This document shows, one piece after another, positions 26,180 to 46,292 of a stretch of DNA of 60,353 bases. The stretch spans positions 1-60,353 of the forward strand of contig DATIOK010000209.1 in assembly GCA_035473255.1 (NCBI GenBank), in the 5' to 3' direction. This DNA comes from Gaiellales bacterium (GTDB lineage Bacteria; Actinomycetota; Thermoleophilia; Gaiellales; JAICJC01). A model generated the notes under the pieces. The model was given only the letters and a program-made list of their open reading frames with translations, had not been told where the DNA came from and did no database searches. Positions within the stretch are counted from its first letter, which is position 1, and each line of letters starts with the position of its first letter. The translations under genes were made by a program, and so were the position numbers.

Positions 26180-26347
26180 GATGGTTGATTCCATGGGGTG
26201 CGTGGATGCTGGGCGCAGGATGGGGCGCGCTGGGCGTCGGGAGCGTCCGCAGGGCAGGCTGGATGATGCCCTGGCCAAGGACGATCGTGGCGTCCAGCGT
26301 GTCCCAGACCAGTCCGGCGCCGCGCAGTTCATGGAATCAACCATCTA
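26180..26347. repeat. MITE/REP-like element with 16-bp perfect terminal inverted repeats
   Basis: GATGGTTGATTCCATG (26180-26195) and its exact reverse complement CATGGAATCAACCATC (26330-26345), enclosing 134 nt; fills the accB-accC gap. Confidence 0.75.
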
Positions 26348-39435: not shown

Positions 39436-42008
39436 CCGGGTGAGCGGAGCCGCTCTCGGATCGCGGTCTCGGCGGCCGCGATCGCGGTCGCCAGCTGGGC
39501 CGGATCCTTGCCGCCGGCCCGTGCCATGGTGGGACGGCCGCCGCCGCCACCGCCCACGATCGGCGCGATCTCGCGGATCAGGTCGACCGCCGACAGACCG
39601 CGGTCGACCACCGGCTGGTCGAGCGCCACGACCAGATGCACCTTGCCGTCGGTCGAGCTGCCCAGCACCACCGCCGCCGGGGCGAGACGCGCCTTCACGC
39701 GGTCCGAGATGGCCAGCAGCGTGTCGGCGTCGATGTCATCGACCACCGCCGCGACGAACCGGACGCCATCCTGCTCGGACGCCGACTCGACCAGGCCGGC
39801 CTCGCGGCCGTTCCCCCCGCCGGAGGCCGGCGGGCCGCCGTCACGGGCCGACTTCCTGAGCTCCGCGCGCAGCCCGGCGGCCTCGTGCTCAGCCTCGTCC
39901 AGCTGGTCGGCACGATCGCGCAGGTACTCGAACGCGGCCTGCGACGTGATCGCCTCGATCCGCCGCACGCCCTGCGACGAGCTGGCCTCACGCAGGATCA
40001 CAAAGGGGCCGATCTCGGCCGTCGATCGGACGTGGGTGCCCCCGCACAGCTCGCGTGACATGTCCGGCACCTCGACCACGCGCACCTGGTCGCCGTACTT
40101 CTCGCCGAACAGCATCATGGCGCCGAGCTGCTGGGCGTGCTGCTTCTCGGTCACGAAGGTGTGCACGGGCCGGTTCTCGAAGACGTGGCGGTTCACGATC
40201 GCCTCCACCTGCCGCACCTGCGCCGGCGTGAGCGGGGCGTCGTGGCGGAAGTCGAAGCGCAGCTTGTCGGGCCCCACGTAGGAGCCGGCCTGGGTGACAT
40301 GGTCGCCCAGCACCTCGCGCAGCGCCGCGTGCAGCAGGTGCGTCGCCGTGTGGTTGGCCATCGTCGGGCGCCGCGCCTCGCCCAGCACGTGCGCGCGCAC
40401 GCGCTCGCCGGGAGCGATCGTGCCGTGCTCGAGGCGGGCCACGATCTGCTGGTCCGAGTCCTGCCTGATCACCTGCTCGACCACAGCTCGCCCGTTGTCT
40501 GACTCGATAACGCCCTGGTCTGAGACCTGGCCGCCCCCGGCCGCGTAGAACGGCGACTCGCGCAGCTTCAGCCGCAGCAGGCCGTCGCCCTCGTCGACCA
40601 GCCCGCCCACCTGCGTGCGAACGTCCAGCTGCTCGTAGCCGACGAACTCGGTCGTGAAGCCGGCGTCCAGCTCGGACGCGCCGTAGCCGACGGCGGCGGT
40701 GCTGGCGCGCGCCCGCTCACGCTGCTCCTCCATCAGCCGCGCGAATCCGGGCTCGTCGACCGTCACGCCGTGCTCGGCCGCGATCTCGGCGGTCAGCTCG
40801 AACGGGAAGCCGTAGGTGTCGTGCAGCTTGAAGGCGTCAGCCGCCTCGATCTGGGCGCCCGAGCGCTCCAGCACCTCGAGCAGCAGCTGCTGGCCGTTCT
40901 GGAGGGTCTGGGCGAACCGCCGCTCCTCGGCGGCGAGCAGCGCCGCAACCGAGCTGCGGTACTCGCCCAGCTCGGGATAGACGTCGCCGAGCAGGCCCAC
41001 CACGACGCCGTGCAGGCGCTCCGTGACCGGGCCCTCGATGCCGATCCGCTGGGCGTGCAGGAGCGCGCGGCGGATGACCCGGCGCAGCACGTAGCCGCGG
41101 CCCTCGTTGGAGGGCTCGATGCCGTCGCTGGCCAGGAACGACATCGCGCGGGCGTGGTCGGCCAGCACCCGCAGCGACTTGGTCTGGGCCTCGTTCGCGC
41201 CGTAGCGCGCACCCGGCCACCGCTCGATCTCGCGGATCACGTCGCCGAAGGCGTCGGTCTCGTACACGGAGTGCACGCCCGCGATCAGCGCGGCCACGCG
41301 CTCGAGGCCGCATCCGGTGTCGACGCTGGGCGCGGGCAGCGGCTCCAGGGCCCCGCCCTCGAGCATGTTGTACTGCAGGAACACCAGGTTCCAGTATTCG
41401 AGAAAGCGGTCGCACTCGCAGCCGGGCGCACACTCGGGGCGGCCGCATCCGTGCTCCGGCCCACGGTCGAAGTAGAGCTCGGAACAGGGGCCGCACGGTC
41501 CGGTCGGCCCCGCCTGCCAGAAGTTATCGCCGCCCAGGCGTACGATCCGTTCGCCGGGCACGCCGGTGTGGGCCATCCACAGCGCGATCGCCTCCTCGTC
41601 GGGTTCGACCCGCTCGTCGCCCTCGTAGACGCTGGCCCAGATCCGGCTGGGGTCGAGCGCGAAGCCGTCCTCGCGGATGGACAGGTCCCAGGCGCACTCG
41701 ATCGCGTACTGCTTGAAGTACTCGCCGAACGAGAAGTTGCCCATCATCTCGAAGAAGGTGAGGTGCCGGGCGGTGTTCCCGACCTCGTCGATGTCGCCCG
41801 TGCGGAAGCATTTCTGGACGGACGTCGCGCGCGGCGCCGGCGGCTGCTCGATGCCCAGGAAGTAGCGCTTCAGCGGCTGCATGCCGGCGGTCGTGATCAG
41901 CACCGACGTATCCCAGTCCGGTGGGACGAGGGAGCCGCTGGGCAGCTGGACGTGGCCGCGGGCCGTGAAGTAGTCCAGGTACCGCCGTCTGATCTCATGC
42001 GTGCGCAT
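39432..42008 (-). CDS. alaS: Alanine--tRNA ligase
   Basis: TTAGMQPLK, QKCFRTGDIDEVGNTARHLTFFEMMGNFSFG, CGPCSE, DTGCGLER, NEGRGYVLRRVIRRA, LHDTYGFP, NHTATHLLH, ELCGGTHV, GGGGR. Confidence 0.98.
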   Translation of the reverse strand: MRTHEIRRRYLDYFTARGHVQLPSGSLVPPDWDTSVLITTAGMQPLKRYFLGIEQPPAPRATSVQKCFRTGDIDEVGNTARHLTFFEMMGNFSFGEYFKQYAIECAWDLSIREDGFALDPSRIWASVYEGDERVEPDEEAIALWMAHTGVPGERIVRLGGDNFWQAGPTGPCGPCSELYFDRGPEHGCGRPECAPGCECDRFLEYWNLVFLQYNMLEGGALEPLPAPSVDTGCGLERVAALIAGVHSVYETDAFGDVIREIERWPGARYGANEAQTKSLRVLADHARAMSFLASDGIEPSNEGRGYVLRRVIRRALLHAQRIGIEGPVTERLHGVVVGLLGDVYPELGEYRSSVAALLAAEERRFAQTLQNGQQLLLEVLERSGAQIEAADAFKLHDTYGFPFELTAEIAAEHGVTVDEPGFARLMEEQRERARASTAAVGYGASELDAGFTTEFVGYEQLDVRTQVGGLVDEGDGLLRLKLRESPFYAAGGGQVSDQGVIESDNGRAVVEQVIRQDSDQQIVARLEHGTIAPGERVRAHVLGEARRPTMANHTATHLLHAALREVLGDHVTQAGSYVGPDKLRFDFRHDAPLTPAQVRQVEAIVNRHVFENRPVHTFVTEKQHAQQLGAMMLFGEKYGDQVRVVEVPDMSRELCGGTHVRSTAEIGPFVILREASSSQGVRRIEAITSQAAFEYLRDRADQLDEAEHEAAGLRAELRKSARDGGPPASGGGNGREAGLVESASEQDGVRFVAAVVDDIDADTLLAISDRVKARLAPAAVVLGSSTDGKVHLVVALDQPVVDRGLSAVDLIREIAPIVGGGGGGRPTMARAGGKDPAQLATAIAAAETAIRERLRSPG

Positions 42009-42096
42009 CGGGGCATTCTACCGGCGGGGCGGCCGGCGACCTGTACCACAAAGCGGTGATGGCGGCGGCTTGTGCGCTGGCGGACAATCCCATCTC

Positions 42097-42504
42097 GTGG
42101 ACACGTCGCTCCCCGCGCCCGGCTCCGATCGACCCCTCCGTGTGCTGATCGCAGACGATCACGTCGGGCTGCGCGCCATGATCGCCGAGGCGCTGCGATC
42201 CAACGGCTACGACGTTGACGAGGTTGGCAACGGCGGCCTGGCACTCGAGGCCATCCGGCGCGGCGACCACAGGGTGGCGATCGTCGATGTGCGGATGCCC
42301 GTGCTGGACGGGCTCGCCGTGGCGGCCCGTGTGCGCGAGGAGGGGCTGGCCTGCCGAGTGATCGTGATCTCGGTGGTGGATGACCCGGAGACGCGCCGGA
42401 GGGTGGCCGAGCTGGGCGCCGCGTTCCACCGCAAGCCGTTCCGGCTGGCCGACCTGCTGGCCGATGTGCGGGACGCCGGCACTGTCCCGCAGACGCTACC
42501 CTGA
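42097..42504 (+). CDS. Single-domain response regulator (receiver only)
   Basis: GTG 42097; VLIADDH, IVDVRMPVLDG (phospho-Asp), VISV, RKPF; no output domain. Confidence 0.85.
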   Translation: MDTSLPAPGSDRPLRVLIADDHVGLRAMIAEALRSNGYDVDEVGNGGLALEAIRRGDHRVAIVDVRMPVLDGLAVAARVREEGLACRVIVISVVDDPETRRRVAELGAAFHRKPFRLADLLADVRDAGTVPQTLP

Positions 42505-42508
42505 GAGC

Positions 42509-42823
42509 ATGCACGAGGACGACACCCTCAGCCGGTTCGAGCACTCCGAGCCCTTCACCGGCCGCATCGAGCCGCTGGACGGCTACGTGCTGGTGGAGCC
42601 GGTGGACGACGAGACCGAGACCAACGCCGGCCTGATCATCCCCGCGTCGGCCGAGTCTGCCTGCATCGCCGGAATCGTGGTGGCGGCCGGAGACGACGCG
42701 TCGGGCGTCGCTCCCGGCGACAAGGTGCTCTACCCTCGCGGCGCCGGGTTCGAGATCCGCATCGGCGGCCAGCCGAAGCGGCTGCTCGACCGGCAAGAGC
42801 TGATCGCGCGTCTGTACGACTAG
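42509..42823 (+). CDS. groES: Co-chaperonin GroES (Cpn10) family paralog
   Basis: ATG 42509; IEPLDGYVLVEP, mobile loop ETETNAGLIIP, GIVVAAG, VAPGDKVLY, ELIARL. Confidence 0.8.
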   Translation: MHEDDTLSRFEHSEPFTGRIEPLDGYVLVEPVDDETETNAGLIIPASAESACIAGIVVAAGDDASGVAPGDKVLYPRGAGFEIRIGGQPKRLLDRQELIARLYD

Positions 42824-42849: not shown

Positions 42850-43107
42850 CTACGCGCCCGTGTGCAGGTCGCTGATCTGGTCGTCGATCTCCTGGGACCG
42901 CCGCTCGGCCGCGCTCCTGCCCTCCTCGGCAGCCTCGCGCAGGTCGTCGGGGATCGTGCGCAGATCGGCGAACAGCTTGCCCGGCATCTCCGCCAGCACC
43001 TCGCCGATCGGCCGGTTCTCGTCCTCGGCGATACGCTTGGCGCGGTCGTATGCGAGCACGGCCGCCGCGGCGGCGGCCAGCCCCAGCATGCCCGCCAGCT
43101 TGCTCAC
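42850..43107 (-). CDS. YtxH-like small membrane-anchored protein
   Basis: GTG 43107 (GTGA overlap); N-terminal hydrophobic stretch followed by a charged helical tail; follows a DUF948 gene, as in ytxG-ytxH pairs. Confidence 0.65.
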   Translation of the reverse strand: MSKLAGMLGLAAAAAAVLAYDRAKRIAEDENRPIGEVLAEMPGKLFADLRTIPDDLREAAEEGRSAAERRSQEIDDQISDLHTGA

Positions 43108-43481
43108 ACGACCCCGCCGCGCTGGCCGCGCTTGCCGCGGAAGCTCTGGAAGGCCTGGGAGATCCCGGCCGAGACGCCCGACACCGCCCTCGCCGGCGTG
43201 CCCAGCACCGAGTTGATGGTGCGCACGCTCGAGTCGAGCGAGTCGGCCGCATCCACCGCGCTGTCGGTGATGTGCCCGACCTTCTCCAGCTCGTCGTTGA
43301 CGTGGTCGATCGTGGTCGATGCCTTGCCCAGCATCGGCACGACCTCGCCCATCGTCTGCTTGAGGCTGGTGTCGGCGGTGCTGAACAGGCCGCCCAGACG
43401 CACGAGCGCGTACGTGATCCCGACCCCGGTCAGGATCAGGAAGATCGCGAGCGCGATGCGCCATGCATCAGAAGCGTCCAT
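43104..43481 (-). CDS. DUF948 (YtxG/YoxC-like) membrane protein
   Basis: N-terminal TM followed by a coiled coil (VVPMLGKASTTIDHVNDELEKVGHIT). Confidence 0.75.
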   Translation of the reverse strand: MDASDAWRIALAIFLILTGVGITYALVRLGGLFSTADTSLKQTMGEVVPMLGKASTTIDHVNDELEKVGHITDSAVDAADSLDSSVRTINSVLGTPARAVSGVSAGISQAFQSFRGKRGQRGGVV

Positions 43482-43492
43482 CGTCGCCCATA

Positions 43493-44911
43493 TTACCCGG
43501 CTATCACTCCGCCGCCCACGATCACGTCTCCGTCGTAGAGGACGGCGGCCTGACCGGGCGCGACGCCGTACGCCGGCTCGTCCAGCTCGAGCTCCAGCCC
43601 GCCCTCCACCTCACGCACCGTGGCCGGCAACGCCGGTGACCGGTAGCGCAGCTTGGCCTGCACCCTGGCCATGGGCAGCACCATCGTCCCCGGCCGCACC
43701 GTGACGGTGCTCCGAGCCAGCGCCCGCCTTGGCCCCGCCACCACACGACCGCGGGCCGGGTCGACCTCCAGCACGAACAGCGCCTCGCCGCCGCCGACGC
43801 CAAGCCCCTTGCGCTGGCCGGGCGTGAACCGGTGCACCCCGTCGTGGCGCCCGATCACGCGGCCCTCGGCCGTGACCACCGCTCCCGCGCGGCCGGCCCC
43901 GCCGTGGCGCTCGAGGAAGCCGCGGTGGTCGCCCCCGCCCACGAAGCAGACCTCCTGGCTCTCGCGCCGGCCGGCCGCGGCCAGCCCGGCGGCATGCGCC
44001 TGCTGGCGCGTGTCGGTCTTGCGCTGGTCGCCCAGCGGGAACCAGGTGCGCGACAGGATCCGCTCGGGCACGCGGGCCAGCATGTAGGACTGGTCCTTGT
44101 CCGGGTCGGCGCCGCGCGCCAGCACCGTGTGCCCGCCCCGCTTCACGATCCGGGCGTAGTGGCCGGTTGCCAGCCGGGGTGCGCCCACCCGGTCGGCGAA
44201 GGCGGCCAGGGCGTCGAACCGGAAGCTGCCGTTGCAGCGCATGCACGGGTTGGGCGTGGTGCCCGCAGCGTGGCCGCGCACGAAGTCGTCCACCACCCGT
44301 GAACGGAAGCGGTCGCGCAGGTCAAGCGTGACGTGAGGCACGCCGGTTGCGTGGCAGGCGCTGCGGGCCGCTCGCACCGACTGCGGCGAGCAGCAGGCCC
44401 GGTCCGAGTCGGGAGCGTCGGGGTCGATCCAGAGCCGCAGCGTCACGCCCACGGGCTGCAGTCCGGCCTCGAGCGCCTTCAGCAAGGCGACGGCGCTGTC
44501 CACCCCGCCGGACATGGCGACGGCGACGCGGTCGGCGCGCACCGGCATCTGCTCGCGGTCCAGCGCCCGCGCGATCGCCGCGTGCAGGGCGTCGGCGGCC
44601 AGGGCCACGCACTCGCGGTTGTGCGGCTCCGGCCGCAGCTCGCTCTCGAGCTCGCCGGCGCCGATCATGGCGGCGGCCAGCAGGTCGCGACCCTCGGACA
44701 GCCGGCAGGCAAGCGACGCCGCAGCGGTCGCGTGCGGGCAGGCGAAGCTGCGGTGCCGGGCCTGCACCACCAGCCCGTCGGTCACGGCCAGCTCGATCCG
44801 CACGGCGTCGCCGCAGCTGGGGTCGCCCGCCTCGCCCCAGGCGGCACCGGGGCCGGCCGATCCAGCCCTGGTCAGGTCAAGCGATGCAGCGATCACGGAC
44901 GGGTGGTACAT
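43493..44911 (-). CDS. mnmA: tRNA 2-thiouridylase MnmA with an N-terminal IscU/NifU-like domain
   Basis: aa 1-117: MYHPSV..GDPSCGDAV..FACPHATAAAS..NRECVALAADALHAAI. From aa ~128: AMSGGVDS, ACCS, TPNPCMRCN, ATGHYA, KDQSY, ESQEVCF, TPGQRKGLG, GVAPGQAAVLY. Confidence 0.95.
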   Translation of the reverse strand: MYHPSVIAASLDLTRAGSAGPGAAWGEAGDPSCGDAVRIELAVTDGLVVQARHRSFACPHATAAASLACRLSEGRDLLAAAMIGAGELESELRPEPHNRECVALAADALHAAIARALDREQMPVRADRVAVAMSGGVDSAVALLKALEAGLQPVGVTLRLWIDPDAPDSDRACCSPQSVRAARSACHATGVPHVTLDLRDRFRSRVVDDFVRGHAAGTTPNPCMRCNGSFRFDALAAFADRVGAPRLATGHYARIVKRGGHTVLARGADPDKDQSYMLARVPERILSRTWFPLGDQRKTDTRQQAHAAGLAAAGRRESQEVCFVGGGDHRGFLERHGGAGRAGAVVTAEGRVIGRHDGVHRFTPGQRKGLGVGGGEALFVLEVDPARGRVVAGPRRALARSTVTVRPGTMVLPMARVQAKLRYRSPALPATVREVEGGLELELDEPAYGVAPGQAAVLYDGDVIVGGGVIAG

Positions 44912-44917
44912 GACGGC

Positions 44918-44923
44918 AGCCTA
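44918..44923 (-). promoter_or_regulatory. Putative -10 hexamer TAGGCT, 6 nt before the iscU-mnmA ATG
   Basis: Minus strand aaccatcTAGGCTgccgtcATG; overlaps the end of the repeat element. Confidence 0.5.
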
Positions 44924-44990
44924 GATGGTTCGGGCCGACGGTTGATTCCACGAGCTCCAGAGCCATACAGCTCGTGGAATCAATCATCTA
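44922..44990. repeat. Hairpin element related to the 26180-26347 element
   Basis: GACGGTTGATTCCACGAGCT (44937-44956) pairs with AGCTCGTGGAATCAATCATC (44969-44988): 15-bp perfect core, 12-nt loop; an extra TAGATGGTT at 44922-44930. Confidence 0.75.
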
Positions 44991-46103
44991 TAGCAGCGCG
45001 CCGGCGCGGAGCCTCTCGACGCACTCGCCCACGGCGGCCGCGAACGCGTCCACCTCCGCCTCGGTGGTGTCGATGCCGATCGAGACGCGGATCACGCTGC
45101 GCGCCTGATCCGGCGTCAAGCCCTGCGCCAGCAGCACGTGGCTGGGCTCGCTGTCACCGCTCGCGCAGGCGCTGCCCGCGGCGACGGCGAAGCCCGCCTG
45201 GTCGAGCGACAGCACCAGCAGGTCGGAACGGATGCCGTCGGCCAGCAGCAACGAGTGGCCGGGCAGGCGGTCGACCTCCGCAGAGACCGGGGTAAGACCC
45301 CCGCCGACCCGCTGTTCGAGCCGGTCGCGGAGCGCGCGTCGGTGATCGCTGCGGCCGCGCGCGGCCGCCAACGCGGCCGCGAACCCGACCACGCCGGCCA
45401 CGTTCTCGGTGCCACTGCGTGAGCCCCCCTCCTGGCCGCCGCCCCAGATCAGCGGCCGCAGGCGCGTGGGGTCGCGTGCGATCAGCGCGCCCACGCCCTT
45501 TGGGCCGTGCATCTTGTGCGCCGCCAGCGCCATCGTCTCGGCGCCGGAGGCCGCGAAGTCCACCGGCAGCGACGCCGCCGCCTGCACCGCATCGGTGTGC
45601 AGCGGCACGCCCCGCTGGGCGCAGATCGCGACCAGCTCCGCGACCGGCTGCACGACGCCGGTGACGTTGTTCGCCCACATCACCGCCGCCATCCGGTCAC
45701 CCGGCCGCACCGCCCGGTCGAACGCGTCTACGTCGATCACACCCGACGGATCGACCCCCACCCAGGCCACCTCGAAGCCCTGTCGTTCCAGCTCCCGGAC
45801 AGGCTCCCTGACGGCGGGATGCTCGATCGCGCTCACGACGATCCGCCCCAGCGGGCGGCCGGTGAGGCCGAACACGGCCTGGTTGTCGGCCTCGCTGCCG
45901 CCGGAGGTGAACACCACCTGCGCCGGCGCGCAGCCCAGCAGCGAGGCGATGGTGGTGCGGGCAGCCTGCAGCCCCTCGCGGGCGGCGCGACCGGCCGCGT
46001 GCGGCTCGGAGGCGTTGCCGAACCGCTCGGTCAGGTACGGCTCCATCGCGGCGCGCGCCTCGTCGCAGAGCGGAGAGGTGGCCGCGTGGTCGAGATAGAT
46101 CAT
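44988..46103 (-). CDS. iscS: Cysteine desulfurase, group I (IscS/NifS)
   Basis: ATG 46103 chosen (TAAGGT 7 nt upstream). IYLDHAATSP, FTSGGSEADN, IEHPAV, HTDAVQA, AHKMHGPKGVG (PLP Lys), RSGTENV, AAGSACASG (catalytic Cys). Confidence 0.95.
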   Translation of the reverse strand: MIYLDHAATSPLCDEARAAMEPYLTERFGNASEPHAAGRAAREGLQAARTTIASLLGCAPAQVVFTSGGSEADNQAVFGLTGRPLGRIVVSAIEHPAVREPVRELERQGFEVAWVGVDPSGVIDVDAFDRAVRPGDRMAAVMWANNVTGVVQPVAELVAICAQRGVPLHTDAVQAAASLPVDFAASGAETMALAAHKMHGPKGVGALIARDPTRLRPLIWGGGQEGGSRSGTENVAGVVGFAAALAAARGRSDHRRALRDRLEQRVGGGLTPVSAEVDRLPGHSLLLADGIRSDLLVLSLDQAGFAVAAGSACASGDSEPSHVLLAQGLTPDQARSVIRVSIGIDTTEAEVDAFAAAVGECVERLRAGALL

Positions 46104-46292
46104 GGCGGACACCTTATCGGCGCGTGCCGACGCCTGAGGCTTCGCGGGCGGCCACTTTCTGGATGCTTCGACCGCTCCGACCTCTGCCCCTGCGCTTGAA
46201 GAGTCGCACGACGGTTATGGAACTGAAGTGCGCGTGACGAAATGACGCCGGCACTCACACGGTAGCGAAGCTGGCAGAATCCGCAAATCGGG

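Follow-up and report, generated by a model that had tools for sequence, protein, structure and literature searches.

Why should a tRNA-thiolating enzyme begin with a domain of the iron-sulfur (Fe-S) scaffold type? The question is raised by a gene in a 60,353-nucleotide stretch of DNA from a Gaiellales bacterium (GenBank assembly GCA_035473255.1, contig DATIOK010000209.1, positions 1 to 60,353), hereafter the window, which is part of a 3.23-Mb metagenome-assembled genome (MAG) that is 90% complete. The window has a G+C content of about 72%, and its minus strand carries aspS, an MMPL transporter gene, a 374-aa class-V aminotransferase gene, a 76-nt spacer, an open reading frame (ORF) of 472 aa, several small ORFs and alaS. 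The 472-aa ORF is the only MnmA gene of the cell, encoding a putative synthase of tRNA 2-thiouridine 34 (s2U34) of the C type that is preceded, in the same frame, by a complete IscU-type domain. The elements of the locus are the following.

44988..46112, minus strand: iscS/nifS-like group-I cysteine desulfurase gene, 374 aa (Pfam Aminotran_5, PF00266, 221.8 bits)
44912..44987, minus strand: spacer of 76 nt between iscS and the fusion gene, containing an inserted hairpin element (about 44922-44990; fold -36.3 kcal/mol, z -4.98, without a T-run)
43493..44911, minus strand: iscU::mnmA fusion gene, 472 aa plus stop (ORF, Pfam and NCBIfam scans, AlphaFold2 model)
44555..44911, minus strand: IscU-type domain, residues 1-119, with Y2, C33, D35, C58, H60, C69 and C101 (NifU_N; Foldseek matches to IscU/ISCU)
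44531..44554, minus strand: eight-residue linker, residues 120-127, the stretch of lowest mean column conservation (0.41)
43937..44530, minus strand: MnmA PP-loop (HUP) domain, residues 128-325, with SGGVDS, C173-C174, C223xxC226 and C322 (PF03054, E 8.3e-61)
43502..43921, minus strand: MnmA PRC-barrel and C-terminal beta-barrel (tRNA-binding) domains, residues 331-470 (PF20259, PF20258)

The enzymatic identity of the gene is given by its larger, C-terminal part. The product scores above both MnmA equivalog cut-offs (NF001138, 351.4 versus 284 bits; TIGR00420, 280 versus 236.95 bits), its PP-loop reads S134GGVDS139, both tRNA-binding barrel domains are present, and Foldseek pairs the C-terminal part with the structures 2hma and 2det at target-based TM-scores (TMt) of 0.86-0.87 (0.87 for 2det_A). 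The cysteines C173-C174, C223xxC226 and C322 compose a CC-CxxC-C pattern, kept in all 104 metagenome proteins and all 80 related loci compared, and this pattern defines the C-type, Fe-S-dependent MnmA, which has Actinobacteria among its carriers (Shigi et al. 2020, PMC7025502). The MnmA part is thus of the C type and predicted to depend on a [4Fe-4S] cluster, as an earlier reading of the window from its sequence alone (hereafter the sequence-only reading) had also held; the ACCS motif that this reading regarded as extra is C173-C174, that is, the standard CC motif of C-type enzymes (PMC7025502). The fusion is the sole full MnmA of the genome.

The N-terminal part is recognized by profile, by alignment and by fold. 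Pfam NifU_N matches residues 15-116 of the fusion (E 3e-15; 56.9 bits versus a cut-off of 22), and in phmmer alignments with IscU and Isu1 entries of the PDB, with codons verified, C33, C58 and C101 fall on the three ligand cysteines and D35 on the ligand Asp. In the same alignments E100 takes the position of the conserved His (His105) and LRPEPHN that of the LPPVK chaperone motif. The sequence-only reading had claimed both the presence of these ligands and the absence of the His and of LPPVK, and it was right on both counts. No HscB was found in the 90%-complete MAG, and the missing LPPVK fits with this. In an AlphaFold2 model of the whole fusion (70 sequences; predicted local distance difference test score 93.7, predicted TM-score 0.91), a long helix (residues 96-119) leads through the eight-residue linker into strand 128-132, the first of the PP-loop domain. 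The N-terminal domain taken from this model matches IscU/ISCU structures at TMt 0.84-0.89 (3lvl_A 0.86, root-mean-square deviation 1.4 Å), with the persulfide-transfer structure 8pk8 among the top fold matches, and SufU structures at TMt 0.63-0.69 and 18-19% identity. It lacks both the SufU insertion between the second and third cysteines (Cys2 and Cys3) and the Lys before the third. With a score of 18.3 versus 92.5 bits against TIGR01994 and a fold nearer to IscU, a SufU-type identity can be rejected. The domain also stands below the equivalog cut-offs for IscU (TIGR01999, 45.6 versus 192.4 bits) and clostridial NifU (TIGR03419, 46.5 versus 187.9 bits).

The fusion is genuine, is conserved and evolves under purifying selection. 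The 472-aa ORF is a single uninterrupted frame whose protein starts with M-Y-H-P, and its start position is fixed, since an in-frame TAG stands three codons 5' of the ATG. When contigs from four public soil runs were aligned to positions 43400-46200, a 3135-nt DNA contig of run X1 spanned 43400-44863 with 0 differences, and a 1229-nt contig of the metatranscriptome run X5 spanned 43486-44714 without gaps, across the junction of the two domains (about 44531-44554). Neither a stop or frameshift between the domains, an eventuality raised by the sequence-only reading, nor any indel inside the fusion ORF was reported in the DNA or RNA contigs of the four runs. Among 5.8 billion proteins searched, at least 120 clusters match at 63-95% identity, mostly of 472 aa and combining PF01592 with the MnmA domains, and the named clusters among those matches are labeled as MnmA of a Gaiellales bacterium. 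Y2, C33, D35, C58, H60 and C101 are invariant in the 104 full-length metagenome proteins and C69 is found in 103 of them, while position 100 varies (E, A, D, G). Likewise, C33, D35, C58, H60, C69 and C101 are all invariant in 29 of 29 species-level MAGs, named as Gaiellales, Thermoleophilia or 'uncultured Actinomycetes'. The ratio of nonsynonymous to synonymous substitution rates against close relatives is 0.09-0.26 for the IscU part and 0.13-0.22 for the MnmA part. Conservation of the scaffold cysteines, on which the sequence-only reading had made its case depend, is hence complete in the clade of the window; in many other lineages with the fusion the cysteines are partly or wholly lost, as described below.

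The gene directly upstream encodes, as the sequence-only reading proposed, a desulfurase of group I: the protein has the class-V fold, and in alignments with IscS and NFS1 structures its AHKMHGPKG (with the pyridoxal phosphate lysine) and GSACAS (the catalytic Cys loop) fall on the corresponding motifs. It scores 337.7 bits, versus a cut-off of 530.75, with its closest NCBIfam model (NifS, TIGR03402), and 239 versus 304 bits with the IscS subfamily (NF002806). No NCBIfam equivalog cut-off is reached; the protein is a divergent group-I member, and the name IscS is used here by resemblance only. Neither Rrf2 nor any other Pfam family is matched by the ORFs in the 555 nt that precede iscS, and the claim that no Rrf2 regulator is adjacent holds for this stretch. 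In 25 of the 25 related species with sufficient flanking sequence, the gene immediately upstream of the fusion encodes an IscS ortholog, and the distance from the iscS stop to the fusion start is 9-26 nt in close relatives, with overlapping TGATG in more distant ones, an operon-like spacing.

The longer spacer of the window contains a perfect hairpin with a stem of 15-17 bp. A conserved regulatory role of this hairpin in the system was considered and rejected, since the element is missing from relatives that are 92-95% identical (those with the 9-26 nt spacers) and variant contigs of runs X1 and X4 lack 54-60 nt at this point. It looks like a small mobile insertion of the repetitive extragenic palindromic (REP) or miniature inverted-repeat transposable element (MITE) kind, lying outside the system; an end motif related to that of the hairpin is seen near 26330 (about 26327-26342). 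Two other irregularities were observed between or within these genes. In one subclade (L066, L072, L074, L078-L084), an insertion of 0.9-1.25 kb separates iscS from the fusion gene; the only insert read, that of L083 (1655-2488), has ORFs in two frames, a membrane-anchor-like start and two CxxCH motifs (GCDQCH, GCVNCH), and may represent a gene for a dihaem c-type cytochrome, perhaps frameshifted in assembly. At another locus of the window's family (L006, G069:C6:212797-213911), the iscS ortholog matches in two pieces (residues 4-289 and 306-373), through either a frameshift/pseudogene or an assembly error, and the adjoining fusion retains all three cysteines.

The Fe-S equipment of the rest of the genome bears directly on how self-sufficient this gene pair may be. 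Following the suggestion of the sequence-only reading to look for suf genes, SufB, SufD, SufS and a SufU-type protein (with IRLKC) were found on contig C258, and this SufU-type protein is the only other NifU_N match in the genome. Within that operon (L001, G000:C258:9040-12390), sufS and sufU are followed by a Rieske-like ORF (CxH...CxxH) and a DtxR/IdeR-like ORF, both identified by eye. Three full-length desulfurase-like genes are present, encoding SufS, a 'desulfurase-like' protein of the VC1184 type and the window's IscS. Since no other group-I enzyme was found in the MAG, this IscS may supply further pathways as well. The picture of a self-contained assembly line is therefore not supported, given the presence of a full SUF system with its own SufS and SufU and the loss of scaffold ligands in other lineages while MnmA keeps its CC-CxxC-C; equally, the only group-I desulfurase found may not be private.

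Far from being a rarity, the fusion is widespread across the Thermoleophilia and occurs in further actinobacterial lineages. A search with the N-terminal domain in 301 genomes of the same class yielded matches inside long frames in most families; at 30 loci from seven families a single tblastn segment runs from the IscU part to the MnmA end, and three more families behave likewise. In what follows, f1 is the family of the window (non-Gaiellaceae Gaiellales), f2 the Gaiellaceae and f23 the Rubrobacteraceae, which lie outside the class. A Miltoncostaeaceae MAG branches with f4 in the MnmA tree. The fusion is also present in complete genomes of cultured strains of Rubrobacter xylanophilus (WP_143526913.1, WP_219974989.1, UniRef100_A0A510HJL1) and R. 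radiotolerans (WP_051589482.1, AHY46641.1), where NCBI and UniRef annotate it simply as MnmA, and in two further actinobacterial families (f25, f62). In f5, f36 and f63, iscS, iscU and mnmA are separate genes in the same order. The case of f36 (L157-L159; G511/G333/G413) is instructive, for its iscU (127 aa, with a canonical LPPQKMHC) and mnmA share a frame and are parted by one stop codon; the fusion would need only a single point mutation, and repeated origin is thus plausible. The unfused f5, f36 and f63 are interspersed among fused lineages in regions of poor resolution of the MnmA-domain tree, and the fusion may have arisen once or several times.

Across these lineages the N-terminal domain occurs in graded states of decay.

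f1 (window), f3, part of f6 and f62: Cys-Asp-Cys-Cys site complete
f4, f7, f9, f10, f12 and Rubrobacteraceae: Cys-Asp-Cys, with the third Cys replaced by Ala or Gly and the preceding His kept (Rubrobacteraceae add GCxxC)
Part of f6, and f25: only Cys1 and Cys2
f8: only Cys1
Gaiellaceae (f2): Cys-less remnant of about 75 aa

Cys1 is the most widely retained residue of the domain (among fused forms, f82 alone is without it), and the CC-CxxC-C of MnmA is kept throughout, also beside decayed domains. In the MnmA tree the Gaiellaceae group with f1 and f3 at 99% support, and their remnant hence derives most likely from a complete fusion.

A search for relatives of the window IscS in 41 genomes from 17 families returned full-length group-I proteins in f1, f3, f4, f5, f6, f8, f23, f25, f33, f36, f62 and f63, and only partial matches of SufS level in f2, f7, f9, f10, f11 and f12. 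All six families in the latter set have lost Cys3. Conversely, Cys3 is kept in f1, f3, part of f6, f62 and the unfused IscU of f36, all of them with a group-I desulfurase; f82 keeps Cys3 as well, yet it gave only a desulfurase match of 33% identity. A group-I desulfurase thus appears to be necessary, but not sufficient, for the retention of Cys3 in nearly every lineage. A stricter rule, by which an adjacent IscS would imply three cysteines, was rejected, because Rubrobacteraceae lack Cys3 despite an adjacent IscS and because f62 and part of f6 keep it with IscS elsewhere in the genome. The N-terminal aromatic residue that matches Tyr3 of IscU (Y2 in the fusion described here) follows the same trend as Cys3, being present in f1, f4 and f6 and missing from f7, f9, f10 and f12. 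In the 3LVL complex this Tyr contacts IscS, and the third Cys of ISCU is the entry point for persulfide from group-I desulfurases. The restriction of Cys3 to lineages that have such a desulfurase, together with this role as persulfide entry, points to chemistry between IscS and the domain.

Put together, these data suggest that the IscU-type domain and the C-type MnmA work together, the covalent link being a valid Rosetta stone, and with moderate confidence we propose that the domain is an IscS-docking module that would take up sulfur, or perhaps a transient cluster, and hand it on in cis to MnmA. The domain would dock on the co-transcribed IscS-like desulfurase as free IscU does on IscS; its Cys/Asp site, with C101 as the likely entry, would receive persulfide sulfur and may hold it as a transient small Fe-S cluster; and the sulfur would then pass in cis to the MnmA active site, where adenylated U34 would be thiolated, with the general Fe-S supply of the organism presumably coming from SUF. 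The anatomy of the fusion, its conservation, its linkage to iscS and the dependence of Cys3 on a group-I desulfurase across lineages are direct observations, whereas the docking, which way the transfer would run and in what chemical form are inferred; in the clade of the window the transferred species could be either a persulfide or a transient cluster. Several observations weigh against this proposal. Rubrobacteraceae have an adjacent IscS and no Cys3, with His and a new GCxxC instead, and f4, f25 and f33 have an IscS-like gene but likewise no Cys3. A full site of three Cys and one Asp also exceeds the need of a simple relay, as SufU- and Tus-type relays use one Cys, and persulfide relay and transient cluster are not separable by sequence.

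The sequence-only reading had favored a different role, that of a private scaffold which builds or repairs the catalytic cluster in cis. In this view IscS and the IscU domain would build a [2Fe-2S] or [4Fe-4S] cluster to be inserted or repaired at C223/C226/C322, while SUF would provide for the rest of the cell. The case for such a dedicated scaffold draws on the invariance in the clade of the cluster-building residues of IscU (three Cys and Asp), on the clade-specific potential ligands H60 and C69, on a fold that is that of IscU and not of SufU, and on a client of the Fe-S-dependent type; the nearest solved relatives of the desulfurase include A. fulgidus IscS, crystallized with IscU (4eb5), and a chaperone is neither needed nor present. 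Nevertheless, SUF is complete in this genome, His105 is missing, and C-type MnmA is unchanged in Gaiellaceae, f8, f25 and part of f6 despite a vestigial domain or the loss of two to three ligands, which argues that another system can load its cluster. Since MnmA stays C-type beside decayed domains and SUF is present, the domain is not in general needed for the MnmA cluster. Moreover, [4Fe-4S] formation on IscU requires two scaffold copies and an electron donor, and the operon has no ferredoxin gene. We regard the dedicated scaffold as a less likely possibility. Slightly less likely still is the version in which IscS and the fused domain would together make up a full Fe-S machine of two components, building or repairing the catalytic [4Fe-4S] cluster on the tethered MnmA; if true, no earlier natural case would exist of a scaffold bound covalently to its own client enzyme, and the lineages with decayed ligands would record SUF taking over the job. 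Of the function put forward by the sequence-only reading, then, its alternative of a sulfur relay agrees with the comparative data no less well than the scaffold does, while the dependence of cluster loading on the domain does not hold in general.

A domain devoid of sulfur or cluster chemistry, Zn-bound or structural, which tethers MnmA to a partner, stabilizes it or senses redox state or iron, would agree with the repeated decay of ligands in other lineages, which shows that the fusion protein can work without them, and Cys-Asp-Cys-Cys is a typical Zn site too in IscU and SufU proteins. Such a module fares worse in the clade of the window, where none of the putative ligands varies and the domain has changed no faster than MnmA, and the loss of Cys3 along with that of IscS points to chemistry with a desulfurase rather than to structure alone; we deem it unlikely, and less likely than the dedicated scaffold. 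As for the trivial explanation, that iscU and mnmA are separate genes merged only through an error of sequencing or assembly or a misplaced start, the existence of separate genes in f36 and f63, in f36 in frame with a single stop, speaks for it. The probability we grant it is negligible, and a frameshift or other artefact is rejected by the intact DNA and RNA contigs and by conservation, the same architecture recurring in over 100 metagenome proteins, 29 named MAG species and the complete genomes of cultured Rubrobacter, with a start that the upstream stop codon fixes.

A few observations lie aside from this argument. Downstream of the fusion gene we noted a DUF948-like ORF (43104-43481, minus strand), a Cpn10-like ORF with a long N-terminal extension (42380-42823, plus strand) and a response-regulator receiver ORF (42001-42504, plus strand). 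Public metagenome proteins also include other NifU_N fusions (P0153, P0231, P0203, P0244, P0266, P0178, P0134, P0136), with partners such as a pyridine-nucleotide disulfide oxidoreductase, the tRNA-modifying TrmO, a MobA-like nucleotidyl transferase, a trehalose phosphatase, a thiamine pyrophosphate (TPP)-enzyme domain and an IscA-type domain, and proteins with three NifU_N repeats occur too.

The interest of the fusion stems from a continuing debate about how MnmA-type tRNA thiolases obtain their sulfur, and whether and how they acquire an Fe-S cluster (PMC8053098, PMC11784392). That an IscU domain and a C-type MnmA are joined covalently in nature says that both work together, and the lineages with the fusion supply a ready-made series of natural 'mutants', from the full site through forms that have lost Cys3 and kept the His, and forms with only Cys1, to the Cys-less remnant. 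Because the fusion occurs not only in uncultured Gaiellales of soil but also in Rubrobacter, which can be grown in culture, the matter is accessible to bench experiments. The fusion also serves as a caution that a plain MnmA annotation can conceal a further functional domain. Full-text searches returned no paper on an IscU-MnmA fusion within the literature they covered, and a 2026 review of Fe-S biogenesis deals with MisU, SufU and C-type MnmA and not with their fusion. We are thus dealing with two well-known families in an arrangement that we found undescribed, although it is widespread and present in databases under the name of MnmA.

Several known systems offer points of comparison. Thermus thermophilus MnmA (TtMnmA) shares the full MnmA architecture, the PP-loop and CC-CxxC-C, but it is a stand-alone protein of MnmA length that accepts sulfur in vitro straight from free IscS or SufS (PMC7025502), whereas the fusion has an additional N-terminal IscU domain of 119 residues. 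Desulfurase routes that deliver sulfur specifically to MnmA are represented by the dedicated YrvO-MnmA pair of Bacillus subtilis (cited in PMC13066941) and by IscS-TusA-TusBCD-TusE-MnmA of Escherichia coli, and in the window, too, iscS and mnmA are neighbors; the Bacillus MnmA is, however, of the D type and without a carrier, and E. coli uses the Tus proteins, while in the window the presumed carrier would be the IscU domain itself, set covalently on a C-type MnmA. Like the fusion and its neighbor, SufS-SufU (5XT5, 6JZV) and MIS (MisS-MisU) combine an IscU-fold protein with a desulfurase and work free of chaperones. SufU accepts sulfur on its first Cys, and this position is also the one most widely kept in the fused domains, but the domain is structurally closer to IscU and the genome has a separate SufU of its own; MIS (Garcia et al.), compared by gene content alone, fits in having a desulfurase and a scaffold without chaperones or carriers. 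The closest structural likeness is with IscU/ISCU and IscS/NFS1 (3LVL, 4EB5, 8PK8), with the same fold at about 30% identity, three Cys and Asp, the N-terminal Tyr and a group-I desulfurase next door, from which the fusion differs by the attachment of the domain to its client, the Glu in place of His105, the lack of LPPVK, the absence of HscB among the genes found and the clade-specific H60 and C69. In gene content, lastly, the nearest counterparts are the operons with separate iscS, iscU and mnmA, an arrangement seen in f5, f36 and f63 and also in clostridia: functions and order are the same, and the window has iscU and mnmA as one frame.

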